The position numbers and the translations under genes are program-made. A stretch of DNA of 64,000 bases from a virus. Below are positions 30,827 to 64,000 of this stretch, piece by piece (the stretch's first letter is position 1; each line of letters begins with the position of its first letter). The notes under the pieces were generated by a model, which had not been told where the DNA came from, made no database searches, and saw nothing but the letters and a program-made list of their open reading frames with translations. The stretch covers positions 2,630-66,629 of the IMG/VR virus record IMGVR_UViG_3300021356_000014, one strand, 5' to 3'.

Positions 30827-33547
30827 ATGAAAAAAATATATTTAACATTGATGCTACTAATATCGGTAGCATCATTATTTGGGCAAAGGTTTAGTAGTCC
30901 TTTATTAATTAGTAATTTAAAGTCTGATGTTGTGCAAAAATCGGATTTTACAATAACTGGGACTACTACATTAACTTCTGCTAGTTCAACTTTTACTTCT
31001 AGTGATGTTGGTAAGACTATAAGTATATATGGAGCAGGTGATTTAGGTGCTGAACATATTACTACAATTGCATCTGTTACAAGTGCTACAGAGGTAGAGC
31101 TGACTAGTGCTGCTAGTATAAATGTAACAAGTGCTGACGGTTTTTATGCAACAAATAATTCTCCTTTGCTAGATGCTGCTATTGAAGAAAACAAAAATAT
31201 AACAGTAAGTAAAGGTACATATTACTTTGCTGATGAAATAGCAAAAAATGATGTAGATAATTTCTCAATAGATTTTCAAGGTTCGACAATTTACTTTAAC
31301 ACCTTCTTCAATTCAAGTTGGGGAGAAGGGTCTAATGATAATTTAGAGCCAAACATATTTGATTTACAAAATTGTGATAATGTAAGTTTTGAGAATGTAA
31401 CAGCAGAGTTTTTAGGTCAAACATTTGCTTTAAATGATACTGTTTCGTATTCTTCAGAATTTTCTACAACTACTGTAAGTAGTACAGAAGTTACTGTAAC
31501 AAGCGCAACAAATGTATTTACAGCAAGTGATGTAAATAAAATTATTAGACTACAAGGTGCAGGTAGTCAATATTACTATTTTTATATTTCAGAGTTTGTC
31601 TCTTCAAGTGAGGTAAGCATAAAAGATGGCGGTGGTTTTGATAACCCTAATTTAGGAACCTTACAAACAACTCTTACAAATGTAGATGGTAAGATATTCA
31701 GCGAGGATGGATATACAGGAATACTACAAGGTCAAGCTTATGATCGAAGATATAACAAACGAGGTAATACAGGTAATTTTGTTGCTTTAAATACAAGTAC
31801 TAACATTAATCTTACTAATGTAAAAACGATAGGATTAGGTCAATTGTTAGGTATAACAGGAGGTAATAATTCTAAGCTAAACATTTTTAATTGTGAGGTT
31901 GATGGTTATGGAAGTGTAGCTATTTCCCCGTGCGATTATACAACAATAAGAAATTGTATTATAGATAACCAAGAAGCACAAGCTATTACAGCAATAGATC
32001 AAGGGCAAAACTTAGGTACTTCACATGCTATCTATACTACACAAGCTTATGAAAATGTAATCATAGACAATAATGATTTAACATATATCCGAGGTGTTGC
32101 AATACAGTGGAACACAGGAAGCTCAGGTAAAAGTAAAGGGCATTTTGTGACTAACAATTACATGTTTGAAGCACAAAGAGCAGGGACTATTCAGGGGTCT
32201 GCTGAATGGCAAGTGACCTTTGAAAATAATATTTGGGAAAATTGTGGTCAATGGTCTGTAAACTCAACTAATAGTAAAGTTTATATAAAATCAGACACAT
32301 ATAAAGGTGAACCAACTGAGCAAACAGATTATTTAGGTGCATGGGGTATTGTCAATGCTGACTATTTTGAAATGAAAAACTCAACATTAAATGCGGTTTT
32401 TACAGGTGTTACTGGTACTGATGTTAGTGCATTATCATTTTCTATGCAATCATCTAGTGCAGTTAGAGATATAGACGTAAATATCGACAACAATATATTT
32501 GTCAATAATACAAATGATTTACAATTTATAAATGAACAATTCGCATTGACAGCAGGTAATGAGATTAAAATAACTAGAAATGAATTCTTAGGAAATGTGT
32601 ATCTAGTTAAAAGTAGCTCTGGTACATACCGTCAGGCAGATTTAGAAGAGTATATTTTATTTGAGAATAACAACTTCTACGGTACTACATTTATCAGGAT
32701 GGGAGCTAGTTTCTTGTATAATAACTTTACTAAAATTGGTGATTCTGATTTAGCATTAGATATTGATATGTTGTCAGATGCAGGTGCGAGTGGTGAAAGA
32801 AATTTAGTTTTAAATCATAATACTTTTGAAAGAATTAATGGTACAGATTCAGACATAGTAGAGTTAAGTGCTGCGAGTGATTTAAGGGTTGTGTTTGACA
32901 ATAATAAAGGCTTAAATCAATCTACACAAGTACAATTAAATGGAGGTTCTTTCATAAGTAGAAAAGGACTACATCAAACTAATAGTGATAACTATTTTAT
33001 AAAATCAAATAGCAATAGTATTTGGACATTAGAAAGTCCATCTTTGGCACATATTAATTTTAAACATGAAGATGCTAATCAGTGGAAAATAGGCACAGAA
33101 GATGGCGGACTTTTGGACGATAAGTTTATTATAGCATACTCTGGTAATTCATCTTTATCTAGTGGTGTTAGAATGACTATATCAACTGGAGGAAATGTTG
33201 GCATTGGTACTGATAGAGCCGTAGATGCTAGTGAAAAACTTGAAGTGCAAGGTAATATAAAGTTAAATGATGAAGGGGGTACAGTTAGATCGGACTTGAT
33301 TGGTAATGCTGATAACAGGGGAACTGTAACAATAACAGAAGCAAAAACTGGAAGTTATACTTTTAATGTTTCAAAGTCAGATGGCAACTATATTGTTGCT
33401 ACCTCAGTAGAGATAGTGTCTGGTACTCCGAGTTCGGATGAACTTATAGTTACTGTTGAAAAAACAACAAATAGTATTACTTTTACACTTTTTGAAGGTT
33501 TAGATGTAGGAGAAGCCGTAAACATAAACTGGATATTAGTACAGTAA
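30827..33547 (+). CDS. beta-helix tailspike-like protein with signal peptide
   Basis: MKKIYLTLMLLISVASLFG|Q (ATG 30827); beta-helix repeats; RMTISTGGNVGIGT..KLEVQGNI fibre motif. Confidence 0.7.
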   Translation: MKKIYLTLMLLISVASLFGQRFSSPLLISNLKSDVVQKSDFTITGTTTLTSASSTFTSSDVGKTISIYGAGDLGAEHITTIASVTSATEVELTSAASINVTSADGFYATNNSPLLDAAIEENKNITVSKGTYYFADEIAKNDVDNFSIDFQGSTIYFNTFFNSSWGEGSNDNLEPNIFDLQNCDNVSFENVTAEFLGQTFALNDTVSYSSEFSTTTVSSTEVTVTSATNVFTASDVNKIIRLQGAGSQYYYFYISEFVSSSEVSIKDGGGFDNPNLGTLQTTLTNVDGKIFSEDGYTGILQGQAYDRRYNKRGNTGNFVALNTSTNINLTNVKTIGLGQLLGITGGNNSKLNIFNCEVDGYGSVAISPCDYTTIRNCIIDNQEAQAITAIDQGQNLGTSHAIYTTQAYENVIIDNNDLTYIRGVAIQWNTGSSGKSKGHFVTNNYMFEAQRAGTIQGSAEWQVTFENNIWENCGQWSVNSTNSKVYIKSDTYKGEPTEQTDYLGAWGIVNADYFEMKNSTLNAVFTGVTGTDVSALSFSMQSSSAVRDIDVNIDNNIFVNNTNDLQFINEQFALTAGNEIKITRNEFLGNVYLVKSSSGTYRQADLEEYILFENNNFYGTTFIRMGASFLYNNFTKIGDSDLALDIDMLSDAGASGERNLVLNHNTFERINGTDSDIVELSAASDLRVVFDNNKGLNQSTQVQLNGGSFISRKGLHQTNSDNYFIKSNSNSIWTLESPSLAHINFKHEDANQWKIGTEDGGLLDDKFIIAYSGNSSLSSGVRMTISTGGNVGIGTDRAVDASEKLEVQGNIKLNDEGGTVRSDLIGNADNRGTVTITEAKTGSYTFNVSKSDGNYIVATSVEIVSGTPSSDELIVTVEKTTNSITFTLFEGLDVGEAVNINWILVQ

Positions 33548-39290: not shown

Positions 39291-39381
39291 TCGTTTTTCA
39301 ATTAAAGTTTGTACTAAATAAGCCGCACCAGTCAGCTAACACGGTATAAAAAGCATTAAAACGCCTTTTTATACCCAACCG

Positions 39382-39912
39382 TTAGCTGTAATATTGGCTT
39401 AGGTCAATGCTATTTTCAGCTTCGTTACCCCAAGTATGCCAACCCTGCTTCTCCTCTCTACAAAACATTTCCAGTCTGGCAGCACTTGGATACCACTCTT
39501 TTATTAAGTTTCGTATAAAGTCAGGCTTTTTACTGTGCTTGCCTCGTTTCTCTTCCATTACACTACTTATTCTCATTGTGCTTGGCGGTGGGCTAAACTT
39601 ACCTTTTTTAGCAACCATAAGTAGTTCGTGCTGCCCTCTAAACCAATACCCCATACCAATCATCTTTTTATCCCAAATACCGTGTGTTACATACTTAAAC
39701 CCCCATGCTTCTATTACCTTCATTGCTTCGGGTAGTTTTGGAGCAGTAGCCCACATATACAACACAGCATTTTCGTTTGTCATATTCTTTACAGGCAAGT
39801 TGCAAATATCATCAATAGTCATTGTGGGGTATTGGTTTTCCACGTCTCTGCTTTTACTTTTACTAAAGTCATATCGCCACGCAGGGTCGGCATAAATTAC
39901 ATCATATTTCAT
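39382..39912 (-). CDS. MT-A70 family adenine methyltransferase
   Basis: VIYADPAW, YPTM, LYMWAT, AWGFKY, GMGYWFRGQHE, HSKKP, LEMFCR. Confidence 0.9.
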   Translation of the reverse strand: MKYDVIYADPAWRYDFSKSKSRDVENQYPTMTIDDICNLPVKNMTNENAVLYMWATAPKLPEAMKVIEAWGFKYVTHGIWDKKMIGMGYWFRGQHELLMVAKKGKFSPPPSTMRISSVMEEKRGKHSKKPDFIRNLIKEWYPSAARLEMFCREEKQGWHTWGNEAENSIDLSQYYS

Positions 39913-40040
39913 AAGTCTGTGCTTCTAAGTCGCCAATACATACAGCTAACAATGTGTATAAGTAATGGCACGTTAAAATTTGTGGCATAATTCAAATGGT
40001 CGGTGTATGTGCCACTACTCATACACTCGTCCGTTATCGG

Positions 40041-40262
40041 TCATTTCCTTTCGGCACTAACTGCTTTTCTAACTTCTCCAAGCAAAGCACCACTTCTATC
40101 TAATACTTCATCACACATCTTTGCAATACATACAGAGTTATCAGGGTATAACTCTACAAGTCTTTCAAATATCTTTTCTGGTGAAGACATCGGAAACGAA
40201 CTGATAACAACACCTATATTTAATGCCTCGTTTTGTGGTAAATTTGAATTTTCATTTTTCAT
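40041..40262 (-). CDS. small cassette protein whose N-terminus is encoded in the attC-like hairpin
   Basis: MKNENSNLPQNEALNIGVVISS reads through TATAGGTGTT-GTTATCAG. Confidence 0.6.
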   Translation of the reverse strand: MKNENSNLPQNEALNIGVVISSFPMSSPEKIFERLVELYPDNSVCIAKMCDEVLDRSGALLGEVRKAVSAERK

Positions 40263-40324
40263 TTTTAAAGTATTTAAGTTTATAAATATTCGTGTTCATT
40301 GGAACATAGCCAAACCGTTACCAA

Positions 40325-55461: not shown

Positions 55462-56855
55462 TGAGATCGTATATCAGATTAGAAATTCAAAAAGAAGGGG
55501 AAAATGAGATAAGTATGTCAGATGTATCTTATCAGAATGAGAGATACTCAATACTATTTTTATCTAATCAGGGAGTGATAGACAATATGCTTACTAATAT
55601 AGAGGGTAGCTTCCCAGATAGTGATATAAAACGCATAGGAGAGCAAGCTATATTTGAAAATATTATAGACCAGTATGAAAACTTACCTTTACGAGAGTTC
55701 TCGACAGAAGTAACAAAGTCGTTGACTCAATTTGGGGCGGCATTAAAATGGGGTATCTTTATTATTGATGAATGGCTAGATACAGTAACAGTAGTATTAG
55801 ATGAGTTAGGAACAATCCCTGTTTATTACAGATTATCTGAGGATGTTGTAGAGTTGACTACTAGGCTATTCTTTCATAATAATGTAGAATGGTCGCATGA
55901 AGGCGTTACAGAGATTATAAATAATAATATGTCAAGAGATCACTCTTTGCTATCAAACTGGTATCCTTTGCAAGCAAATTCTTGCTACAAATTTACATTA
56001 ACCAAAGATAGCTATGAGGTAGTTAATAATTTGAACATCAGTAAATTAGGTATCCCTGTTTTGCCTAATCTAGCTAATGAGTTCGACTTCAAAAGTAGTT
56101 ATGATTCTTATGATAATGTTATAAAGACATTTGAGTATGTATTTAGTAAAACAGTAGAATATTTACCTGATAACTGCGCTTATATAGCACAAGGCTCTCC
56201 TCTTGATGTACTTATTATTGAAGAGATGTTAGATCAAAATATAAATTTTAGATTATTCTATATAAATGGGTTATCAAATAAATATGCAGACTATTATTCT
56301 AAAAAGTATAAGGCTACTGAATTAAAAGTAGATATTGAGGATAGCAGATTTAATGGAGTATTATCTAGCTTCGATTATTCGGATTACTTTATGGCAAACG
56401 CTATATCACAAATTAAAAAAGAAGGATTTGAGGAGGTATTTGGATGCTTCGCAGCAAGTTATTTCCTACATGACTGGAAAGGAGGAGAATCAGATATTGC
56501 TACACACGCACTAGAAGAATTTATAACGATGAAACAAGATTACCGACATAGAATTGGGAAAGTAATTTCGGATATATCGTTCGTTGCAGATATTGAGGTT
56601 AATGACTTACTAAGTAGCGACTTAATTACAAGTATGATGCATGGATTCTCTATAGCTAGTATGATACCCGAACTTCTTAACTCAAATATTGATGACTTCG
56701 CTAAGTTTCTTAGAAATTTGTACTTTAACTATGGAGTAAGTAAAGAAATAATAAATGAAATACCTACATTTTTATTTACCCCTCTTGGGGGCAGTTCTAT
56801 AGAGCAAAAAGAAGCATTAGCTGAAAAAATTATCTCTTCGTTTATTGAAAACTAA
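55461..56855 (+). CDS. highly diverged asparagine synthetase B-like protein
   Basis: LDELGTIPVYYR resembles the AsnB DxxGxKPLYY motif; N-terminal Cys and LSGGLDS are absent. Confidence 0.45.
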   Translation: MRSYIRLEIQKEGENEISMSDVSYQNERYSILFLSNQGVIDNMLTNIEGSFPDSDIKRIGEQAIFENIIDQYENLPLREFSTEVTKSLTQFGAALKWGIFIIDEWLDTVTVVLDELGTIPVYYRLSEDVVELTTRLFFHNNVEWSHEGVTEIINNNMSRDHSLLSNWYPLQANSCYKFTLTKDSYEVVNNLNISKLGIPVLPNLANEFDFKSSYDSYDNVIKTFEYVFSKTVEYLPDNCAYIAQGSPLDVLIIEEMLDQNINFRLFYINGLSNKYADYYSKKYKATELKVDIEDSRFNGVLSSFDYSDYFMANAISQIKKEGFEEVFGCFAASYFLHDWKGGESDIATHALEEFITMKQDYRHRIGKVISDISFVADIEVNDLLSSDLITSMMHGFSIASMIPELLNSNIDDFAKFLRNLYFNYGVSKEIINEIPTFLFTPLGGSSIEQKEALAEKIISSFIEN

Positions 56856-56930
56856 ATATTTTTTAAGATTTGCTTGCAATTGCGAGCAAATCTTTTTAAC
56901 TTGCAGTCATTAACTAATTAAAAATAAATT
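56854..56930 (+). promoter_or_regulatory. repeated promoter/operator element, copy 3
   Basis: TTTGCTTGCAATTGCGAGCAAA 56869-56890 followed by TCTTTTTAACTTGCAGTCATTAACTAATTAAAA. Confidence 0.7.
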
Positions 56931-56950
56931 AACGATAAACTTAAATTGAA

Positions 56951-57334
56951 ATGAATATAACTAATTGCGAAAAGTGCGGGTGTAAAAAGACTTGGAAGGG
57001 TGATGATATTACTTGTAGCTTCCAAGATTCTGAAAAATTTGGCGATAACTGGAAATGCGGATTGATTGGTAAGATTAGATATTTATGTGAATTAGCTATG
57101 GAGGGCAAAGACCCTAGATTACATTACCAATATTGCGAAGGCCAAAAATATGTAACAATAAAGACTGATGATATAACAGAAATGGGTCTTTGCCTTTGGG
57201 TGAGTTGGTATAAATCTCGTGGTAGAACAGAGGCTATGTGGATATTGGATGGGGATAACCAACCAAAACAGCCAAATTTTAGCGACCTAAAAGCAATTAT
57301 TGAACACTATTCTGAATTATTAGCTGAAATGTAG
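56951..57334 (+). CDS. hypothetical protein
   Basis: 127 aa, CEKC, WYKSRGRT. Confidence 0.65.
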   Translation: MNITNCEKCGCKKTWKGDDITCSFQDSEKFGDNWKCGLIGKIRYLCELAMEGKDPRLHYQYCEGQKYVTIKTDDITEMGLCLWVSWYKSRGRTEAMWILDGDNQPKQPNFSDLKAIIEHYSELLAEM

Positions 57335-57445
57335 CATTGTATATAATGTGAATGTATCTATCCCTGTACCGACCTTTTGGGAGGAATGGAGATAGATGCC
57401 CTGTTAGCCACCGTTTTTATTTTTCTAAAATTTTAAATCATTATA

Positions 57446-57913
57446 ATGTTACAAGAAGATTTCAGATTAGGGAATTACATTTTAGCTTCACAATATTTTG
57501 ATGAAGACGAAGCCCAAGACGACTTACAGGAAGATTACTCTTTTGAAAACGAATGGGATTTGTGTAAAATAACATCAATTGAAAATACTGATTTTGCTCC
57601 TTTTTCTTATGGGCTTGAATCTATCAGAAATGGGAATAAACCGAATCCAGAAATTTGGAACAGATTAGAACCTATTGAGATTAACGAAGATTATCTTATT
57701 AGATTTGGATTTGAGAAATATCCTCATGGTGGAAATGGTTTTAAGTTTGAAGGTTTTGTTGTTTATATTTTGAGAGATTCTATTGAAATAGAACACACTC
57801 CTGCAAAATTTACTGATAGGGTTCATGTTTGCAGCCATATCAAATATTTACATGAATTACAGAATCTTTATTATTTTTTAAATGGTTCTGAGTTGGTTTA
57901 TTCTCCTTGCTAA
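57446..57913 (+). CDS. hypothetical cassette protein
   Basis: FRLGNY..LEPIEINEDYLIRFGF..IKYLHELQNLYY; stop lies in GCTAAC. Confidence 0.7.
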   Translation: MLQEDFRLGNYILASQYFDEDEAQDDLQEDYSFENEWDLCKITSIENTDFAPFSYGLESIRNGNKPNPEIWNRLEPIEINEDYLIRFGFEKYPHGGNGFKFEGFVVYILRDSIEIEHTPAKFTDRVHVCSHIKYLHELQNLYYFLNGSELVYSPC

Positions 57914-58004
57914 CGTACTTGTATATGAAATGCGAAACGCAGTGTAGTTTTTTATATACTGTGTTAGCTGACGAAGTGAACTGTTAATTTTTAAATTTTA
58001 CCCG

Positions 58005-58505
58005 ATGGGAATAGACAAAATAGGAAACAAAAACAACTCTTTTGAAAGTAAGAGTATTGAGTATAGCACACCATTAGCAATAGTGAAACCCTTGATTGAG
58101 GAATTTAGTATTACCAAAGATGTTTGTGCAAGTAAGGTAAACCATAAACTACCCGATTACTGGACTAAAGAAGATGATGCCTTAACAAAAGATTGGATTG
58201 GTAATTGTTGGATGAACCCACCATTTGATAGAAACTTACAAAAATGGGTAAGGAAAGCACATAAAGAAGCTATTAAAAATGGCGGAACAAAGGTTTGCCT
58301 GATACCTGTTAGAAGTAATACAAAATGGTGGGCTGAAACGATGATAGATGCAGAAATACGGTTTATAAATGGTGAAGTAAATTTTAATGACGAACCACGA
58401 GGTTTATGGATGGGTATGTGTATTGTTGTTTTTGGCGAACAAGCGAAAGTAGGTACACATAGCATTATTGATTATAGGAAAGCAAGGGTGAAATTTAAAA
58501 ATTAA
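58005..58505 (+). CDS. phage Dam-like DNA N6-adenine methyltransferase
   Basis: YSTP, DVCAS, DDAL..W, WMNPPF, WVRKA, LIPVRSNTKWW, IRFI.G. Confidence 0.88.
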   Translation: MGIDKIGNKNNSFESKSIEYSTPLAIVKPLIEEFSITKDVCASKVNHKLPDYWTKEDDALTKDWIGNCWMNPPFDRNLQKWVRKAHKEAIKNGGTKVCLIPVRSNTKWWAETMIDAEIRFINGEVNFNDEPRGLWMGMCIVVFGEQAKVGTHSIIDYRKARVKFKN

Positions 58506-58616
58506 TTGCAGCTAACGGTTTGGCTATGCACCGTAAAGCATAGCACAATGTTTAATCTTAGCACTTACCTTAATCGCTTTATGGTGTATAGGTTGTGTTA
58601 GCAACAGTTAATTATT

Positions 58617-58850
58617 ATGACAATTTATAGAATATACTCTGATAAACAGCCTGACACTATGTTTGCAAGTAGCCTTGTGTGTAGTGTAGTGGTTGTAGCA
58701 AATAGCGAAGAAGAAGCAAAGCAGATAGTGGAAAAGAAACACGGTGATAACTTTGTATGTGATTACGAAGATGTTAAAGTAGAAGCTATTTGCGGTGATA
58801 ACCAATCAATGATTGTAAATGTGGAATACTTTAATGATAGCCACTACTAA
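58617..58850 (+). CDS. small cassette protein
   Basis: 77 aa, VVVANSEEEAKQ. Confidence 0.65.
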   Translation: MTIYRIYSDKQPDTMFASSLVCSVVVVANSEEEAKQIVEKKHGDNFVCDYEDVKVEAICGDNQSMIVNVEYFNDSHY

Positions 58851-58883
58851 TTGTTGCTAACAGGGTATATCAGAAATAAAAAA

Positions 58884-58960
58884 AAATATTTTTTAAGATT
58901 TGCTTGCAATTGCGAGCAAATCTTTTTAACTTGCAGTCATTAACTAATTAAAAACTAACT
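58884..58960 (+). promoter_or_regulatory. repeated promoter/operator element, copy 4
   Basis: About 70 bp identical to copy 3. Confidence 0.7.
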
Positions 58961-58963
58961 ATT

Positions 58964-59341
58964 ATGAATTTATCAGAAACACCTACTACAATATTAGGTA
59001 AAACAGTAAAATCTATCAGAGAACTAAGTGATTGCTGTATTTGCCTAGAATTTACTGATGGCACTAATTTTTGGCTAAATAGTTCGACAACCTTAGCTGC
59101 AATAGTTGACTGTAGCGACGATACATTATTAGGCAACAAAATTGTAGGTATAAAATTTGAATCTACTACTAGAGTAGATGAATCTTTTTATACTTGTAAT
59201 ATAGAAGTCGATAATGATGGGAAGCCTTCATACCAGATGTTTTCTATATGGATTAATGGATTAAGCGGGAAGAAAGAGGAGATGAGAAGAAACTTGAAAG
59301 CAAATCCCCTGCATTTTGTTAATGCAGATTTACCATTTTAA
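58964..59341 (+). CDS. hypothetical protein
   Basis: 125 aa ORF after the promoter element. Confidence 0.6.
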   Translation: MNLSETPTTILGKTVKSIRELSDCCICLEFTDGTNFWLNSSTTLAAIVDCSDDTLLGNKIVGIKFESTTRVDESFYTCNIEVDNDGKPSYQMFSIWINGLSGKKEEMRRNLKANPLHFVNADLPF

Positions 59342-59408
59342 ATATGAACGCTATTATTTTTATATTGCTCCTACTTGCATTGGTAGGGGTATCACAAAAT
59401 CAAGAGTA

Positions 59409-59579
59409 ATGAAAGAAGTTATTTTAGTATTTATCTTAGCAGTCATAAATTTCTTAATATTTTCATACGATATAGAAGTCGACAAAGATTTTTTCACATG
59501 GCTATGGCTCTTAAACAGCATTATATGTTTAATAGGGTCTGCGGTACTTTATACCAATCATTTAGATGAAAATCAATAA
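59409..59579 (+). CDS. small two-TM membrane protein
   Basis: MKEVILVFILAVINFLIF..WLWLLNSIICLIG; internal ATG preferred over the track start 59316. Confidence 0.5.
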   Translation: MKEVILVFILAVINFLIFSYDIEVDKDFFTWLWLLNSIICLIGSAVLYTNHLDENQ

Positions 59580-59586
59580 ATAAAAT

Positions 59587-60975
59587 ATGAAACAATATCT
59601 CGATCTGTTAGAAAAAATTGTACATTCAAGTACATACAAGGATGACCGAACAGGAACAGGAACTTTTAGTCTATTCGGACATCAAATGCGTTTTGATTTG
59701 AGTGAAGGATTCCCACTAGTCACTACAAAGAAGGTACATTTTAAAAGTATTGTACATGAGCTGCTGTGGTTTCTAAAAGGGGATACCAATATTAAATACC
59801 TACAAGAAAATGGTGTACGTATTTGGAATGAATGGAGACAACCATATTCTTTAAATCGAGATGTGGTTTTCATTGATCCTGTTAAAAGTGAATTTGATTC
59901 ACCATATTTAGGAGATTTTTCAACAAAAGGTCTTAATGCTGCGAAAAATTCAGTTGATGATAAACTGAGAAACCTATGGGTTAAGATGATGAAAAGATGT
60001 TATGATTCTTCATCTCATAACTTTCATCTATACGGTGCATTAGGTGTAAGAGTTTGCAAGGCATGGCATGATGTACAGGTTTTTGTTGATGATGTTAAGC
60101 AAATACCTCATTGGTATTATAAGCTTAATGACTGGTCAAACTTTGAATTGGATAAGGACTATTATGGCTCTAAACTATATTCAAAAGATACGTGTGTTTG
60201 GTTAAGAACTGATGAGAATAATCTATATACTAAAGCTACCAAACCACTCGAAATTACAGATGATATGGGTGTAAAGAAGTTTTACATTTCTTTAAATAAT
60301 GCTGCTTCTTCTCTGAATATACCCTCATCCACATTATCACGTTTTGTTAATGAAAATCCTAAAATCTTAAAGGGCAATAACAAACAGTTTGTTAAATGGT
60401 CCTTTCAAGTTGCTGAACTAAATGGCAAATTACCTAGATTTGAACTTATTAAAGAAGGTTCTTTAGGACCAGTTTACGGCGAACAGTGGCGTAATTTTAA
60501 CGGTATTAATCAACTAACACAAGTTATTGATCGGATTAAAAAAAACCCCGATTGTCGTCGTATTATTGTTTCTGCATGGAATCCAGCTGAGATTGACAAT
60601 ATGGCACTGCCCCCTTGTCACTGTCTGTTCCAGTTTGTTGTTATCGACGGTAAGCTGTCCTGTCAGCTCTACCAGCGTTCGGCTGATGTATTTCTTGGTG
60701 TACCCTTTAATATTGCTTCTTATTCACTACTAACCATGATGATGGCACAAGTTTGTGGCCTAGAAGCAGGAGAATTTGTCCATACTATTGGTGATGCTCA
60801 TTTGTATATAAATCATATGGAGCAAGCAAAGATTCAATTAAGCAGGCAAATGCGAGCATTGCCTACTGTAAGAATCAACCCAGATGTGAAAGACATCTTT
60901 TCGTTCCAATTTGAGGACTTTGAGTTAATAGATTATAATCCTCATCCACCTATAAAAGCAAAAGTCGCAGTCTGA
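59587..60975 (+). CDS. thyA: thymidylate synthase with an in-frame HNH-like insertion of about 207 aa
   Basis: DRTGTGT, FPLVTTKK, ELLWFL, LGPVYGEQWR, MALPPCH, YQRSADVFLGVPFN; insertion 59836-60456. Confidence 0.95.
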   Translation: MKQYLDLLEKIVHSSTYKDDRTGTGTFSLFGHQMRFDLSEGFPLVTTKKVHFKSIVHELLWFLKGDTNIKYLQENGVRIWNEWRQPYSLNRDVVFIDPVKSEFDSPYLGDFSTKGLNAAKNSVDDKLRNLWVKMMKRCYDSSSHNFHLYGALGVRVCKAWHDVQVFVDDVKQIPHWYYKLNDWSNFELDKDYYGSKLYSKDTCVWLRTDENNLYTKATKPLEITDDMGVKKFYISLNNAASSLNIPSSTLSRFVNENPKILKGNNKQFVKWSFQVAELNGKLPRFELIKEGSLGPVYGEQWRNFNGINQLTQVIDRIKKNPDCRRIIVSAWNPAEIDNMALPPCHCLFQFVVIDGKLSCQLYQRSADVFLGVPFNIASYSLLTMMMAQVCGLEAGEFVHTIGDAHLYINHMEQAKIQLSRQMRALPTVRINPDVKDIFSFQFEDFELIDYNPHPPIKAKVAV

Positions 60976-61123
60976 AAACTCAATTTAGAAAAACTCGATT
61001 ATGGAAAACTCAATTTAGAAAAACTCGATTATGGAAAACTCGATTATGGAAAACTCGATTATGGAAAACTCGATTTAGAAAAACTCGATTATGGAAAACT
61101 GGATTATGGAAAACTCAATATAA
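60974..61123 (+). repeat. 10 x 15-bp tandem repeat RAAAACTCGATTATG
   Basis: Units counted directly, starting at 60974. Confidence 0.95.
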
Positions 61124-61215
61124 TGAATAACTTTTTTAGAGCATTAGGGACAGCATTGTTTCTAATGCTTATTACTTTAATATTTATTTTATCAATACTA
61201 TTTATATACATATGA
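61123..61215 (+). CDS. 30-aa hydrophobic peptide
   Basis: MNNFFRALGTALFLMLITLIFILSILFIYI; ATGA overlap with 61212. Confidence 0.45.
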   Translation: MNNFFRALGTALFLMLITLIFILSILFIYI

Positions 61216-62309
61216 AATATTCAACATACTTTTTTGATTCGCTAGGATGGTTGCGAATGAATAGGTGGCCAGATGAGTATAAAACTTTTCAAGAACATAG
61301 AGAAGAGATTATAAATAATCCTGACTTGGCTTGGAAAGATTGTAATGCAGGCGATTCGCTTTACAGAACTTGCCTATATCTAGCACTAATCGGTAATAAC
61401 ACTCAGGCAGATAAGTTCATTACAGACTATTTAGAGGATATGATAAACTCAGGAGAGTATTACAGGCATCCTACCGATTCTAAAAAGCATATCTCAAGAG
61501 ATCAAATTATTGCTCTTTGCTTTTTCTTGTATACATTCAATAAAAAAGAATTACTTAAAAAGATTGCTAGGCAACACAGATTTAGATTTACACTAAAATC
61601 TAAGTACGGAACAGGGGCATATCAATCCATTGATTTCTATCTGTTTTTGCAAGCAATTGCTTGCAACTCGATGGCTAGTAACTCGATGGCCAGTAACTCG
61701 ATGGCCAGTAACTCGATGGCTAGTAACTCGATGGCTAACTCGATGGCCAGTTCAAGAGCTGCCCTGATAGGGCACTCGATAGCTGCCTCGATAGCTAGAG
61801 GCTCGATGTTTGGCTACTCCATAGGAGCATTTTTCGCTCGATGGATGTATATGATGCTCGATAGCTTAATATTTCCTTGCATGATGGCTTGGAATGTCAT
61901 AGTAAGAGGTATATTCAGAATGAAGTTTAGACCCTTAGAGCAAGCATTATCCTACATCCCATCACAACGAGATATAAATGGAGGTAAACTACTGTATCCA
62001 AAATATGCGCTATTCCTTAATAGCTTGCAACATTATATGCTATTCGGTAAATCCTCAATGTACGGCAAACTAAAAAGAAAACTGATTCATAAGTCTAATG
62101 TATATTGTAGATCATTAGTATATTACGATGGGTCGCCTACCTTGCATGATGTATTTACAACGCATACAGAAATACAAGGAGGTGTACATCTAAGATACCT
62201 CGATGGCTCTCAAAGACTAAAAAAGCTAAAAAAAGCTGAATTAGAAAATGATCTTCAATACTCATTAACTGTAAATTTAGGAATTTTATTGCTTCTGACA
62301 AAAGATTAA
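61212..62309 (+). CDS. hypothetical protein with an SNSMA repeat insert
   Basis: 365 aa; AGDS..T and YRHP..ISRDQII; 15-bp repeats at 61665-61751. Confidence 0.65.
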   Translation: MKYSTYFFDSLGWLRMNRWPDEYKTFQEHREEIINNPDLAWKDCNAGDSLYRTCLYLALIGNNTQADKFITDYLEDMINSGEYYRHPTDSKKHISRDQIIALCFFLYTFNKKELLKKIARQHRFRFTLKSKYGTGAYQSIDFYLFLQAIACNSMASNSMASNSMASNSMASNSMANSMASSRAALIGHSIAASIARGSMFGYSIGAFFARWMYMMLDSLIFPCMMAWNVIVRGIFRMKFRPLEQALSYIPSQRDINGGKLLYPKYALFLNSLQHYMLFGKSSMYGKLKRKLIHKSNVYCRSLVYYDGSPTLHDVFTTHTEIQGGVHLRYLDGSQRLKKLKKAELENDLQYSLTVNLGILLLLTKD

Positions 62310-62337
62310 AGTAATTAAAAAAAATTATTTTGGACGC

Positions 62338-62373
62338 AATCGCTTGCAATTCAATCAGTTACAAGCGATTTTT
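62338..62373 (+). terminator. putative terminator
   Basis: AATCGCTTGCAA..TTACAAGCGATT followed by a T run. Confidence 0.6.
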
Positions 62374-62403
62374 TATTTTATCTAAAATTTATTTTCTTAT
62401 TTA

Positions 62404-62435
62404 CTTGCGTAGTATCAAAAATTAGATTATCTTGC
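62404..62435 (+). promoter_or_regulatory. promoter of array D
   Basis: CTTGC-N18-TTATCTTGC, the same geometry as the repeated element. Confidence 0.55.
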
Positions 62436-62465
62436 AAACATATTATTAATCACTAAAATTTAATT

Positions 62466-62648
62466 ATGGAATGGCAAGAATTAAAACCTGATAATCTACC
62501 TAATCAAGGTAGTTGGATATTAATAACCGATGGAAATGATTGGAGAAGGGTTTTTGTAACTCCCCAATTTGAATTTGTAGAAAAGCCTGACGACAGGGTG
62601 GTATATAGTCAAGGTATAACTCACTGGTGTGAAGTTAAGCTTCCTTAA
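62466..62648 (+). CDS. DUF551-like small protein
   Basis: MEW..LP..ILITDG..ITHW..LP. Confidence 0.6.
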   Translation: MEWQELKPDNLPNQGSWILITDGNDWRRVFVTPQFEFVEKPDDRVVYSQGITHWCEVKLP

Positions 62649-62723
62649 ATGGGTGATAACGTTGAGCGTATGCGCCTGTTGGCGTGTTAATTAAAATTAC
62701 AAACTTTCAAAAACAGATATAAG

Positions 62724-62915
62724 ATGAGCAAAGAACAGAAATTGTTAGCTGCTGTTGCGACTGAAATGGAGTATGAACGCTATGAGTACAAAGGCGTTTT
62801 ATTACAGAGGCTAAACAAAGACTATATATGGTATGCGATTTACCAAAATCAAATAATAAACTGGAGCAAGTATAGCAACGACTTAGAAAGCTGGATTGAC
62901 AGCAATTGCAGCTAA
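62724..62915 (+). CDS. small cassette protein
   Basis: Starts upstream of GTTAGCTGC (62744); stop lies in CAGCTAAC. Confidence 0.6.
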   Translation: MSKEQKLLAAVATEMEYERYEYKGVLLQRLNKDYIWYAIYQNQIINWSKYSNDLESWIDSNCS

Positions 62916-62990
62916 CGGTTAGCATAAGAATAGTACGGGAATAACCCAAAAAAGATAAAACGGAGTACAAATTTTAAAACAAAAATAGCG

Positions 62991-63362
62991 ATGGAAAAGA
63001 TTTTAAAGATTGAAGAAACAACATTTGATGGTAAAGATGGATTTGTAATAACCACAGATGCGCAAGTAATTAAATTAGGCATTGACAACTGCCAATGCTG
63101 CTGTGAGAACTGGGGTTACTTTATGAGCGAAGATGACCTTAATGATTTTATAGGGGCTAATTTAATTACGGTTAAAGTAACAGATACAGCTTTAAAAACT
63201 TGGGAGGAAATAGAGGATATGTATGAAGGTGATGCAATGTTTGTGAACTTGGAAACAACTAACGGACTTTTACAATTTGTAGCATACAACGAACACAACG
63301 GATATTACGGACACGAAGCCTGTGTTGTTTCCAAACAAGTAAACGAAGAGGTTTATTTATAG
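62991..63362 (+). CDS. hypothetical phage protein (CCE / NGYY motifs)
   Basis: QCCCENWGY, YNEHNGYYGH. Confidence 0.75.
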   Translation: MEKILKIEETTFDGKDGFVITTDAQVIKLGIDNCQCCCENWGYFMSEDDLNDFIGANLITVKVTDTALKTWEEIEDMYEGDAMFVNLETTNGLLQFVAYNEHNGYYGHEACVVSKQVNEEVYL

Positions 63363-63622
63363 CCGTGCGAGGGCTTTTGATTTAAAATTCCTCAATAACG
63401 CACTACCGCTTATGCGAGCTACTAACGTAGTATTATTTTTATGCATTGTTAGCGGTATGTGTCTTATTTAAGAAAAAGAACGAAACCTTAAATAGCGCAC
63501 TGCCTTAATTAATATTTTGGCATTACCGCTAACGGTTTGGCTATGTGCTGAACGTAATAAAATGAAGTTTTGCATATAGCTTGTGTTATATGCTTTTTAT
63601 TAACTGATTAAAGGAAATAATT

Positions 63623-63877
63623 ATGAAAGTTACTATTGAGGATGCAATTAGATGTGCATTAGATGAAGCTAAAAGAAAAGAAGAAATGGGTTTATTAATA
63701 CCTTGTAACCACCCAAAACAAGAAGAAATATTTGAAAAGGGTGTTGAAGGTGTTGAAGGAGACCCTGAAACAGTATATTCAATAGCTTCATTATATGCTG
63801 ATGAAGAAAGTTCTGATGGAACTTGGTTAAGATGTATAGAAGGGGCGTTGGAAGAAGTTTATCCCACTTACTTCTAA
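63623..63877 (+). CDS. small acidic cassette protein
   Basis: 84 aa between GTTATATGC and GCATATAAC. Confidence 0.65.
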   Translation: MKVTIEDAIRCALDEAKRKEEMGLLIPCNHPKQEEIFEKGVEGVEGDPETVYSIASLYADEESSDGTWLRCIEGALEEVYPTYF

Positions 63878-64000
63878 TTGCATATAACGGCTCGGCGCTG
63901 ACGCAGTAGCTGCATATTATTTTAATACTGGAGTCTAATTTACCGTAAAAATCACAAAGTTGATATCTTATTTCCTAAAATTTACTAGCAGCTATTGCCG

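Follow-up and report, generated by a model that had tools for sequence, protein, structure and literature searches.

The attC sites of integrons are usually seen as short non-coding tags placed after a gene, and in the classical sites the choice of strand is set by extrahelical bases. A coding segment within an attC site is known from the IS1111-attC elements, which are self-mobile and encode their own transposase. Long-range stems are also formed by the RNase III stems around the 16S rRNA and by the intercistronic RNase III sites of T7. In the available portions of two sources (PMC5371416, PMC4889954), classical attC sites measure 57-141 bp, the same range that an earlier sequence-only reading of the present locus had given, and their loops extend from 3 to about 100 nt. 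Clusters of attC sites have also been reported in phages, including P12002L, one site of which was recombined by IntI1 in an attC x attI1 reaction, according to the accessible part of Qi et al. 2023 (PMC9892861).

In the locus described here, the tag instead encloses a gene. The window, i.e., the whole stretch of 64,000 nucleotides of DNA from a marine phage that was analysed, contains at 62911-63453 what is probably an attC-type site with a gene in its loop, where the unit C62916-A63532 would be mobile as one cassette by means of an AA|C crossover that a tyrosine recombinase performs on the strand that has folded. The hairpin and the sequence that follows it are composed of these features:

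62911..62916, plus strand: left R box GCTAAC, containing the TAA stop codon of an upstream 63-aa ORF (62724-62915)
62917..62921, plus strand: unpaired spacer GGTTA, a variant of the GGTTTG of the family
62922..62936, plus strand: left L arm GCATAAGAATAGTAC, with G's at both wobble positions, identical in contigs L192-L195
62937..62990, plus strand: conserved leader, with a GGG-AATAA-CCC mini-hairpin, one half of the middle stem and the 5' half of the inner stem
about 62969-62983, plus strand: 5' half of the inner stem, AAATTTTAAAAC..., ending a few bases before the ATG
62991..63362, plus strand: cargo gene for a 123-aa DUF7448 protein (Pfam match), with orthologues in contigs L162 and L163
63363..63429, plus strand: trailer, with the 3' half of the inner stem and then a conserved stretch up to the right arm
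about 63374-63389, plus strand: 3' half of the inner stem, ...GATTTAAAATT
63394-63409, plus strand: left half of an alternative hairpin, AATAAC GCAC TACCGC, within the trailer
63430..63444, plus strand: right L arm GTATTATTTTTATGC, with T's at both wobble positions
63445..63457, plus strand: spacer ATT (63445-63447) and right R box GTTAGC (63448-63453) with a GGTA extension
63458..63523, plus strand: linker free of ORFs of 40 aa or longer, which folds back on itself (TTATTTAAG...CTTAAATA) and holds a small TGCC...GGCA hairpin
63524..63533, plus strand: TACCGCTAAC, found in each of the five copies, where the shared unit ends; the compact hairpin that follows uses it as its left R box

The sequence-only reading had described arms paired over 15 bp with two G:T pairs, about 500 bp apart and enclosing the 123-aa ORF 62991-63362. 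The arms indeed pair at 62911-62936/63430-63453: the L stem comprises 15 of 15 possible pairs, two of them G:T, and the ORF lies between them in a loop of 493 nt, which gives an element of 543 nt. The GCTAAC and GTTAGC boxes add six further pairs, while the spacers GGTTA and ATT face each other and stay unpaired. The L stem holds no extrahelical bases, its 15 pairs being uninterrupted by any bulge, and the flanks as a whole pair in three tiers: outside is the L stem, then comes a middle stem, and the inner stem lies directly against the start and stop codons. A full 15/15 partner for the left arm occurs once on the real genome strand compared with 0.005 times per shuffled genome strand (200 mononucleotide shuffles of the 66.6-kb genome, the adjacent GTTAGC not yet being required). 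When 62908-63457 is folded as single-stranded DNA, a check proposed in the same reading, the minimum-energy structure is closed by exactly these arms. The z-score for the whole 550 nt is only -1.86, with 3 of 100 shuffles equally stable, so that the fold of this segment alone proves little. Cofolding of the arms by themselves yields -11.8 kcal/mol on the plus strand versus -9.0 on the minus strand. The 543-nt hairpin must compete with local folds, and the alternative hairpin at 63394-63469 overlaps its right arm.

The protein encoded in the loop matches the Pfam family DUF7448 with an E-value of 8e-15 and 55.5 bits, the cut-off being 27, and its orthologues in L162 and L163 share 85% and 77% amino acid identity with it, respectively. 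The sequence around the gene can be treated as a frame, whose left part covers 62922-62990 and whose right part stretches to 63533 from the TTTAAAATT within the 3' half of the inner stem. This frame recurs in the contigs L192, L193, L194, and L195, with identities of 77-92% on the left (77-83% between the window and these four) and 79-94% on the right, and is therefore known from five contigs, all of them uncultured. In L192-L195, the frame has unrelated neighbours. The genes and outer flanks are 48-73% identical across the copies, except for L192 and L195, which share one common gene at 97%. No BLASTP relation exists among the four cargo proteins (best E-value between different cargoes, 0.42); the other three have no PHROGs family, and a Pfam search with the 112-aa cargo protein returned only a sub-threshold H-NS N-terminal match. 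The AAC/GTT triplets are constant in all five frame copies and the remaining letters of the left box vary.

Since the gene varies between copies inside a constant frame, the loop seems to work as a gene slot. The idea of the loop as a place for cargo, put forward from the sequence of this single copy, is thereby supported, the arms, leader, and trailer of the window recurring in L192-L195 with three other unrelated genes. That reading also proposed a check for related hairpins that have the same arms but lack the gene; viral contigs and metagenomes yielded no empty copy of the frame. In the search for empty or further copies, no viral contig contained the exact left arm together with its R box, the right-arm, leader, and trailer patterns each matched only L192, and the metagenome scan gave three contigs, all three with a gene in the loop and none with an empty frame.

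A search for an attC-like core belonging to the 62991 gene alone gave two candidates, neither of them conserved. Both underlie the alternative of an ordinary cassette between two decayed sites, in which 62911-62923 would be a collapsed attC, 63394-63469 the gene's own attC, and the 15-bp complementarity a leftover of related sites nearby. The palindrome GCTAAC-G-GTTAGC at 62911-62923 and a 14-pair hairpin at 63394-63469 (AATAAC GCAC TACCGC...GCGGTA TGTG TCTTATT) are indeed present. However, the palindrome is absent from L162 and from four other frame copies (GCCAAC-GTTGA, GACAAC-GGTTA, TGTAAC-GACCAC, and CATAAC-GGTGA), and the 14-pair hairpin has, by eye, no counterpart in L162. In L163, no hairpin encloses the DUF7448 orthologue, which follows a right arm like that of the window and AATAGTACGG, as in the left arm of the window, an arrangement that would suit two separate sites; nonetheless, this upstream right arm is part of another long hairpin enclosing an 86-aa ORF.

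In L162, by contrast, the long-range pairing is conserved through compensating changes. Its L arms (GCAATATGAAACGTGC and GCATGTTTTATATTGC) and its inner stem (AATTAAAAAGC and GCTTTTTAATT) both have letters unlike those of the window and keep the pairing in both stems. Cofolds of the flanks place an inner stem next to the ATG and the stop codon in six of six elements; pairing was judged from such per-element cofolds, the six-element alignment having put the L162 arms one column out of register. The stretch from 63363 to the start of the right frame is specific to the DUF7448 insert and common to L162. The arms of the window are, in addition, as they should be in type: the left one carries G's and the right one T's. 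An origin from two decayed sites is accordingly very improbable, and the attC-type site with a gene in its loop can be placed among its relatives.

The same phage genome holds several further members of this hairpin family:

63528..63590, plus strand: compact member of 63 nt, GCTAAC GGTTTG GCTATGTGC...GCATATAGC TTGT GTTATA, near-identical in L008, L017, and L025
58511..58602, plus strand: compact member of 92 nt after a Dam methyltransferase gene, with nearly the same hairpin between unrelated genes in L002 and L014
57909..57968, plus strand: compact member of 60 nt, whose GCTAAC holds the stop codon of the ORF 57446-57913
39335..39386, minus strand: compact member of 52 nt in a minus-strand gene block, sense to its genes
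39945..40038, minus strand: member of 94 nt, GATAAC GGACGA GTGTATGAGTA...TACTTATACAC ATT GTTAGC
40203..40322, minus strand: member of about 120 nt, GGTAAC GGTTTG GCTATG...TATAGG TGTT GTTATC

In the last of these, an ORF appears to begin in the loop and to read through the right arm. When the hairpin scan was loosened to accept any spacer, it fared no better than on reversed sequence (7 and 9 matches versus 8 and 5 in the control), and its matches were kept only when they had the spacer and arm features of the family.

Beyond this genome, the family follows the consensus GCTAAC-GGTTTG-GCTATG...TATAGC-nnnT-GTTAGC, where the spacer GGTTTG lies opposite nnnT. Many viral contigs of marine origin hold it. 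The exact 18-mer GCTAACGGTTTGGCTATG is found in 28 IMG/VR contigs, whose flanks are unrelated and whose loops are of many lengths, and members are also held by the Polaribacter phage P12002L, where gp57 and gp41 are located in hairpins of about 200 nt. BLAST of the region and of a compact site against a phage collection returned only thyA similarity and short matches at chance level; it is a poor tool here because the family is too short and variable. A scan of viral loci gave 85 sites versus 6 in reversed-sequence controls. Among them, 27 exceed 150 nt; two wobble pairs occur, at recurrent positions, in 19 of these 27 listed sites, and in 11 of the 27 the loop contains a complete ORF of 40 aa or more. 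In bacterial genome contigs, the full hairpin accompanied 53 of the 122 matches listed in a 16-mer scan, nearly all in Bacteroidota; the 16-mer count alone means nothing, because about 280 chance matches are expected. The bacterial loci contain 155 sites, of which 135 are at most 200 nt long and 20 are longer, against a control level of 21. Long hairpins in the bacterial arrays were thus set aside as being at control level, the left arm of one near-identical site pairing there with the right arm of the next.

The bacterial arrays lie next to a recombinase. In G001, at least 38 co-oriented sites at 2594394-2626939 end about 500 nt from the gene of a 383-aa tyrosine recombinase, and G003, G004, and G007 show the same layout; in G006 and G009 the recombinase homologue stands at the contig start, so that the side of the array is missing. 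Acidiluteibacter ferrifornacis is one species with a homologue beside its array. The best family for this 383-aa protein is NF040815 (XerA / integron integrase), with a score of 192.7 against a cut-off of 220. With TIGR02249 it scores 178.5 against a cut-off of 265, in two pieces that leave model positions 181-239 unmatched, positions which presumably represent the IntI-specific insertion. A search of the viral contigs that reaches close relatives only detected no relative of this bacterial recombinase. Judging from these sequences, the attC-like family is conserved and common to Bacteroidota chromosomes and their phages, and the element at 62911-63453, though not a canonical attC site, genuinely belongs to it as a member of unusual length.

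The wobble pairs of the family are biased towards one strand. With both types of transition mismatch allowed, the 77 viral sites contain 146 G.T or T.G pairs versus 16 A.C or C.A pairs, and the 112 bacterial sites contain 221 versus 30, the favoured strand being the same. One strand is therefore favoured for folding, as in the bottom strand of attC, and would be the putative recombining strand. The orientation of the genes relative to this folding strand is cleanly reversed between phages and bacterial arrays: phage genes are sense to it in 38 of 42 sites and antisense in none, whereas genes in the bacterial contigs are antisense at 122 of 165 sites, sense at 28, and mixed at 15. No description of such a reversal, or of a gene inside an attC loop, was found in the open-access literature searched.

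Because the phage genes are on the folding strand, phage mRNA contains the same stems, and for that reason an RNA role is possible for them. They could even be RNA elements in the first place, sense-strand stems that put each small cistron of the transcript into a long imperfect duplex, the start codon directly following the inner stem and the stop codon lying within it, for RNase III-like processing, stability, or translational control, with the likeness to attC reflecting ancestry. The sense orientation in 38 of the 42 viral sites, the dominance of G.U-compatible pairs on the sense strand, and the position of the inner stem beside start and stop codons in every frame all agree with this, and some compact members allow an alternative hairpin followed by a T run. 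For instance, a terminator-scan match at 63572-63593 overlaps the compact site at 63528-63590; terminator-like sites as a whole number 5 versus 3.5 expected and promoter-like sites 33 versus 36.2, both at background, with a consensus that is that of sigma-70 and may not fit Bacteroidota. Nevertheless, the bacterial arrays favour the same strand, to which their ORFs run antisense, and the junction logic and the breakpoints at TAAC boxes, considered below, are signatures of DNA recombination. An Rfam search of 56000-64000 at E-values up to 1 returned no match. A purely RNA-based role of the element is hence unlikely, and the junctions of the proposed mobile unit bear on its alternative, a site recombined as DNA.

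Comparison with contigs of four other runs placed breakpoints at 62657-62661, 62916/62917, and 63888/63889, all of them TAAC boxes, with matches limited to single units. The first coincides with a further small hairpin:

62655..62690, plus strand: GATAAC...GTTAAT hairpin after a 60-aa ORF, the left boundary of the unit 62657-62916

The unit 62657-62916 recurs in other metagenomes. No recombination joints were listed in the contigs of the four runs, in which 62940-63480 is covered only by a trace in one bin.

The R-box junctions follow the logic of integrons. The first five letters of the left R box are different in each of the five frame copies, and the homology with L192 stops at TACCGCTAAC. 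The right R box with its extension, GTTAGCGGTA (63448-63457), is complementary to TACCGCTAAC (63524-63533) and not to the box at 62911. Across 47 adjacent site pairs in viral loci, the right box, measured over the 7 nt beyond GTT, is complementary to the next left box at 4.45 of 7 positions, compared with 2.74 for its own left box and 2.57 for random pairs; the next left box beats the own one in 35 pairs, loses to it in 7, and ties in 5. The crossover points would accordingly fall at AA|C, between 62915 and 62916 and after 63532, and recombination itself is inferred.

The same junctions help to weigh an explanation based on portable homology arms only, where small genes would be shuffled among co-infecting phages by general homologous recombination, in a manner similar to PeSL and with no site-specific recombinase. 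The swap of genes is bounded by the leader and trailer rather than by the R boxes, as expected from such arms. Also in keeping with it, neither a tyrosine recombinase (PF00589) nor a Y1 transposase was found at E-values up to 1 in the phage genome (CheckV 100% complete), and an 84-nt terminator-like repeat, 94% identical between its copies at 56848 and 58878, recurs as well. Yet homology arms leave unexplained why right boxes match the next left box, why the wobble pairs favour one strand and the bacterial arrays stand beside a recombinase, and why homology across the shared unit breaks off precisely at TACCGCTAAC, which makes them, as the sole agent, a distinctly unlikely explanation.

A gene flanked by inverted repeats, in a unit found in five different contexts, would also be compatible with a small MITE-like transposon, with imperfect terminal inverted repeats, a passenger gene, and a transposase acting in trans. 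There is little chance that this is the case, considering that the shared unit ends with TACCGCTAA, about 80 nt farther on than the right repeat, that its orientation always follows the genes, with a wobble bias marking one strand, and that no transposase was found in the phage with the two families searched.

The reading as a site-specific recombination unit would work as follows. The cassette C62916-A63532 would comprise the spacer, left arm, leader, gene, trailer, right arm, right R box, 66-nt linker, and TACCGCTAA. The complementarity of GTTAGCGGTA to TACCGCTAAC, the end of its own unit, is as left by an AA|C crossing-over on the folded strand. The phage encodes no tyrosine recombinase, and a XerA/IntI-like recombinase of the host may move the unit during infection. 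The gene in the loop, on the other hand, would be exchanged by homologous recombination through the conserved flanks of about 65 and about 150 nt; this step is assigned to homologous recombination because a crossover at the R boxes cannot perform it. The location of phage genes on the folding strand might reflect selection in phages, e.g., for greater exposure as single-stranded DNA or for a further function that the same stems have in the mRNA.

A frame that is reused for at least four unrelated genes offers a testable model of how genes become mobile cassettes or are swapped within them. If host recombinases act on the phage sites, these could be a main engine of small-gene mosaicism in marine phages, and would also connect the phages with the cassette pools of bacteria. 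It has a smaller chance of being true, and is advanced tentatively, that marine Bacteroidota phages carry an 'inside-out' class of integron-like cassettes: rod-shaped hairpin scaffolds with the gene in the apical loop, on the recombining strand, in which the scaffold instead of the gene is mobile and recognised and any small ORF fits between the inner stems. As ready-made adaptors, scaffolds of this kind would make mobile cassettes out of ordinary genes. They would thus offer a concrete answer to the old question of how integron cassettes arise, and would form a phage-specific cassette pool that is silent on landing in a bacterial array.

Among the described systems, the nearest are the PeSL cassettes of T4-type phages, the RNase III stems, the mobile elements that interrupt attC sites, and the integrons themselves. 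According to the accessible parts of PMC2839356 and PMC4122927, PeSL cassettes likewise have conserved intergenic modules flanking small variable genes and a putative modular shuffling, and the swap of genes inside the frame of the window may work in the same way. In those parts, however, the modules consist of a terminator and a promoter motif between genes instead of complementary halves around a gene, and neither recombinase-type junction logic nor strand bias is reported. The RNase III stems around the 16S rRNA resemble the window in that flanks hundreds of bases apart bracket a functional unit by means of a stem with an internal loop; in contrast to processing stems, the family keeps its strand preference in bacterial arrays, where that strand is antisense to the genes. 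In transposons with terminal inverted repeats and MITEs, the repeats stand at the very ends of the unit, whereas the shared unit of the window reaches about 80 nt beyond its right repeat.

The attC likeness claimed in the sequence-only reading extends further than the arms. As in the attC sites and CALINs (attC clusters that have no integrase) described in the available portions of PMC9892861, PMC4889954, and PMC5371416, the hairpin is imperfect and carries AAC/GTT triplets in its R boxes; its spacer stays unpaired, and an L stem leads to a variable loop. The family shares with integron sites the location at gene ends, the favoured strand, the hybrid R boxes at junctions, and, in its bacterial arrays, the adjacent tyrosine recombinase; clusters of the CALIN kind have already been reported in the Polaribacter phage that holds family members (PMC9892861, accessible part). 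Integron platforms encode IntI with an IntI-specific extra domain, while the array recombinase has no match at model positions 181-239 and the phage none to PF00589. Unlike classical attC sites, the site in the window has a coding loop of 493 nt and no evident extrahelical bases, and the spacer and first L bases of the family are strongly conserved in sequence (GGTTTG-GCTATG). Classical cassettes carry the gene on the top strand upstream of attC; here the phage genes are on the folding strand and the gene of the window is inside the site. The linker of about 66 nt at 63458-63523 sits where a classical cassette would carry its gene, and in the window this place is empty. The group IIC-attC introns also put a coding segment within an attC site but, in the part of PMC3001079 available, are self-mobile with their own reverse transcriptase, while the insert of the window is an ordinary small phage gene. 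Compared with such attC-interrupting elements, the slot type seen in the window holds four unrelated genes.

The element at 62911-63453 is made of two complementary halves that enclose a gene. The pairing claimed in the sequence-only reading was confirmed in sequence and extent: all 15 positions of the arms pair, two of them as G:T, and the outer hexamers contribute 6 further pairs, with the spacers GGTTA and ATT left unpaired.

Parts of the gene-bearing hairpin, read from the sequence:
62911-62936, + strand, left side: GCTAAC (62911-62916), then GGTTA, then the arm GCATAAGAATAGTAC (62922-62936)
63430-63453, + strand, right side: the arm GTATTATTTTTATGC (63430-63444), then ATT, then GTTAGC (63448-63453)

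The ORF 62991-63362, which that reading had also placed between the arms, is indeed enclosed by them, and its product is a DUF7448 protein (E 8e-15). Folding 62908-63457 as single-stranded DNA, the check proposed there, gives a minimum-energy structure closed by the 15-nt arms, with a z-score of just -1.86 for the whole fold. The real genome strand contains a single full 15/15 partner of the left arm; shuffled genomes give 0.005 each. The structure noted in the sequence-only reading is genuine and far from what chance would give.

The virus record of 66.6 kb, of which the window covers bases 2630-66629, is linear (IMG/VR class) and 100% complete (CheckV), with a G+C content of about 33% and genes almost exclusively on the + strand. 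Most of the window is occupied by long + strand ORFs, the largest of 1,554 aa, taken to be putative structural genes, and many small ORFs fill its last 8 kb. Neither the tyrosine recombinase family PF00589 nor Y1 transposases gave a match in the phage genome at E-values up to 1.

A repeat search placed the left arm in a family with copies at 58503, 62903, 63520, and 63875, and the window holds six compact hairpins of the same build, each beginning at, or a few bases from, the stop codon of the preceding gene.

Compact hairpins of the same build in the window:
57909-57968, + strand
58511-58602, + strand
63528-63590, + strand
39386-39335, minus strand, inside a minus-strand gene block
40038-39945, minus strand, inside a minus-strand gene block
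40322-40203, minus strand, inside a minus-strand gene block

The left half of family members reads left box (GCTAAC), spacer (GGTTTG), and an arm beginning GCTATG; after a loop of any length follow an arm ending TATAGC, a short T-ending spacer, and the right box (GTTAGC or a related sequence). Exact matches to the 18-mer GCTAACGGTTTGGCTATG are present in 28 IMG/VR contigs of 29-43% G+C, with unrelated flanks and loops from about 10 nt up to hundreds. Scanned for this build (left box, G-initial spacer, at least 12/13 pairs, short spacer, GTT), the viral loci and the genome of the window together yielded 85 sites versus 6 in reversed-sequence controls, 58 of the 85 being no longer than 150 nt. 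Of the 27 longer ones, 11 enclose a complete ORF (at least 40 aa) in the loop, including sites in the compared contigs L009 (twice), L013, L016, and L163, and in the cultured Polaribacter phage P12002L. At several other viral sites the ORF starts in the loop and runs through the right arm, giving peptides like ALHIxxV. Hairpins of about 117-120 nt with such an ORF are found in L001, L003, L004, L021, L023, L028, and at 40322-40203 (minus) of the window; their ORF is about 70 aa long, and translation of the conserved DNA GCATTACATATAGCnnnTGTTA puts (K/E)ALHIxxV close to the N-terminus. The 92-nt hairpin at 58511-58602 is nearly identical, most of the loop included, to hairpins in L002 and L014, and its neighbours in the different phages are entirely unrelated genes. 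What is conserved here is the hairpin alone and not a gene coupled to its hairpin.

Searching for exact words from the window's arms turned up one further copy in viral contigs (L192) and three in metagenome contigs (L193, L194, L195). All four carry the window's left arm and leader, its trailer, right arm and right box, and a linker of about 75 nt ending TACCGCTAAC. Identity is 77-92% across the left frame and 79-94% across the right frame. Beyond these frames it is 48-58% on the upstream side and 50-73% on the downstream side, which is the background level between unrelated AT-rich sequences; the next family hairpin begins on the downstream side.

Genes in the loop of the shared frame:
Window: DUF7448 protein, 123 aa
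L192 and L195: 112-aa CxxC protein, DNA 97% identical between the two
L193: 83-aa protein
L194: 83-aa protein, different from that of L193

BLASTP among these four kinds of loop protein detected no relation (best E-value 0.42). The variable part is bounded by an inner stem, whose half AAATTTTAAAAC lies a few bases before the ATG and pairs with GTTTTAAAATT, placed at or just past the stop; in cofolds of the flanks, the L stem formed by the arms, a middle stem, and the inner stem are present in all six elements examined. The suggestion that the loop serves as a cargo slot is supported by these independent copies with different genes, and from the compared sequences the gene-bearing hairpin is, in all likelihood, one unit with exchangeable content.

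A relative of the loop gene shows the same layout in different letters. The DUF7448 protein of L162 is 85% identical to that of the window, and its arms (left GCAATATGAAACGTGC, right GCATGTTTTATATTGC; 16 pairs, two G:T) and inner stem (AATTAAAAAGC / GCTTTTTAATT) still pair, so that pairing between segments 490 nt apart has been kept despite sequence change. In L163 (77%), the DUF7448 gene lies outside a hairpin, following a long hairpin around a different 86-aa ORF; this family is therefore not bound to the loop position.

The unit borders suggest how such elements may move. The five letters before AA|C are unique to each copy (GCTAA, GCCAA, GACAA, TGTAA, CATAA), and the unit end TACCGCTAA is constant and complementary to the unit's own right box GTTAGCGGTA. 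Exactly this pattern would result if the unit circularised and re-inserted at AA|C. For 47 adjacent viral site pairs, the 7 nt beyond GTT were compared with the 7 nt before AAC: the right box is complementary to the next site's left box at a mean of 4.45/7 positions (12 perfect), versus 2.74/7 for its own left box and 2.57/7 for random pairs. The next box matched better in 35 pairs and the own box in 7, with 5 ties; such junctions are what repeated crossover within the R box, the outer hexamer, yields in integron arrays. Contigs from 4 other public runs match single window units and then part from the window sequence at 62657-62661, 62916/62917, and 63888/63889, every one a TAAC box, so the unit 62657-62916 (small hairpin plus 63-aa ORF) recurs with other neighbours on both sides. 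At 62741, inside this ORF (62724-62915), contigs of 3 other runs have 35-38 extra letters, and the window's version may be a shortened or variant form. A recombination mechanism for these hairpins is inferred from junction patterns.

The strand of the neighbouring genes was counted for sites within 2 mismatches of the 16-mer, using ORFs of at least 80 aa within 1 kb. Relative to the GCTAAC-GGTTTG strand, viral sites have sense ORFs in 38 of 42 cases, antisense in none, and mixed or no ORFs in 4; of 165 sites on bacterial contigs, 122 are antisense, 28 sense, and 15 mixed, the sense cases including chance matches in other phyla and small, possibly viral contigs. The folding strand thus carries the phage genes, and bacterial cassette genes are on its complement. 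In phages the stop codon is frequently supplied by the TAA in the left box, immediately ahead of the inferred crossover. The reversal means that phage mRNA bears the well-pairing version of the stems, which leaves some probability to a rival reading, rated as unlikely, in which the stems serve the mRNA (processing, stability, translation) and the likeness to attC is ancestry. The strand favoured by wobble bias in the L stem is identical in viral and bacterial sites: with both kinds of transition mismatch allowed, G.T + T.G versus A.C + C.A counts were 146 versus 16 in viral stems (77 sites) and 221 versus 30 in bacterial ones (112 sites), the reversed-sequence controls giving 12 and 32 hits. 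This bias, like the junction match and the breakpoints, counts as a sign of recombination acting on DNA. For recombination, a bottom strand on the lagging-strand template leads to more folding and excision, as shown by Loot et al. 2017 (PMC5371416). The reversal would place the folding strand of phages on that template, provided that phage genes are read in the direction of replication.

On the bacterial side, the 16-mer was sought in one genome per prokaryotic species (596 Gb), where at least 120 stretches matched, a count uninformative by itself because about 280 chance matches are expected. A complete hairpin is present in 53 of the 122 matches listed, almost all in Bacteroidota, in discrete size classes of about 47, 53, 117, and 178 nt. 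The Bacteroidales chromosome G001 carries at least 38 co-oriented sites (2594394-2626939), and this array stops short of a 383-aa tyrosine recombinase encoded on the opposite strand, with about 500 nt separating it from the 3' end of the recombinase gene. Intervening ORFs in the array share the recombinase strand, so that this strand reads recombinase, then co-directional cassettes, each terminated by a hairpin ending ...CATAGCC-AAACC-GTTAGC; in integron terms, the GCTAAC-GGTTTG-GCTATG strand is the bottom strand. The layout is repeated in the bacterial genomes G003, G004, and G007; in G006 and G009 the recombinase homologue stands at the contig start and the array side is missing from the contig. 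The top profile of the recombinase is NF040815 'XerA / integron integrase' (192.7 bits, cut-off 220), and on TIGR02249 (integron integrase) it scores 178.5 (cut-off 265), the match being split in two around the unmatched model positions 181-239, where the IntI-specific insertion lies. Given the sub-cut-off scores and the skipped segment, it is named IntI-like, not IntI. The G001 protein has an N-terminal extension of about 105 aa and is without the middle of the IntI model. Array and recombinase look like an integron-like platform of which IntI-based standard searches would list the cluster of sites only. In the region C1:2594394-2628400 of G001 (stretches L157, L112, L035, L158, L153), near-identical units of 381-385 bp also follow one another in runs, and their cassette-gene strand lacks any ORF of at least 60 aa.

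The scan used for viral loci found 155 bacterial sites, 135 of them up to 200 nt; the 20 longer ones show no excess over 21 control hits. Long bacterial hairpins were rejected, being at control level and in several cases cross-pairing of neighbouring near-identical sites. Within this sample, loop genes look like a phage feature.

Other features were noticed as well. An 84-nt repeat (56848-56931 and 58878-58961, copies 94% identical) contains a terminator-like hairpin of 13 pairs, AAGATTTGCTTGC AATT GCGAGCAAATCTT, after which come T's, an AT-rich stretch, and the next gene; as a second type of recurring intergenic module in the small-gene region, it is reminiscent of PeSL-type cassettes. Two sets of 15-nt tandem repeats occupy 60944-61149 and 61641-61751: the gap from thyA to the following ORF has GAAAACTCGATTATG-like units in about 10 copies, and in-frame copies in ORF 61212-62309 give a run of NSMAS peptides. 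The thymidylate synthase ORF (59587-60975, 462 aa) aligns with phage thyA by BLAST in two pieces with the gene middle unmatched, which suggests an inserted segment of about 150-200 aa, possibly an intein, an extra domain, or an endonuclease fusion. At C1:230-460 in genome coordinates, a short way before the window begins, tandem units of about 53 nt each contain GTGCGCAC and TGTTAGAAGTGC; these repeats include GTTAGA and may be origin or iteron-like.

Known attC sites measure 57-141 bp, and their loops can be as small as three unpaired nucleotides or form branched structures (Loot et al. 2017, PMC5371416); a loop range of 20-100 nt is given by Cury et al. 2016 (PMC4889954). Clusters of attC sites without an integrase were reported in 17 phages, P12002L included, whose sites lie among methyltransferase genes, were noted for their 'divergent directions', and in one case recombined with attI1 under IntI1 (Qi et al. 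2023, PMC9892861); the accessible text of that study makes no mention of genes within a site or of an orientation rule. In P12002L, a member of the present family lies at 30957 (minus) between two methyltransferase genes, with further members elsewhere. No description of a gene inside an attC loop was found in the open-access literature searched. The element at 62911-63453 is best filed as attC-like and not as a classical attC, because extrahelical bases are not evident, its size and coding loop lie outside the attC range, the gene orientation is reversed, and no true IntI is associated.
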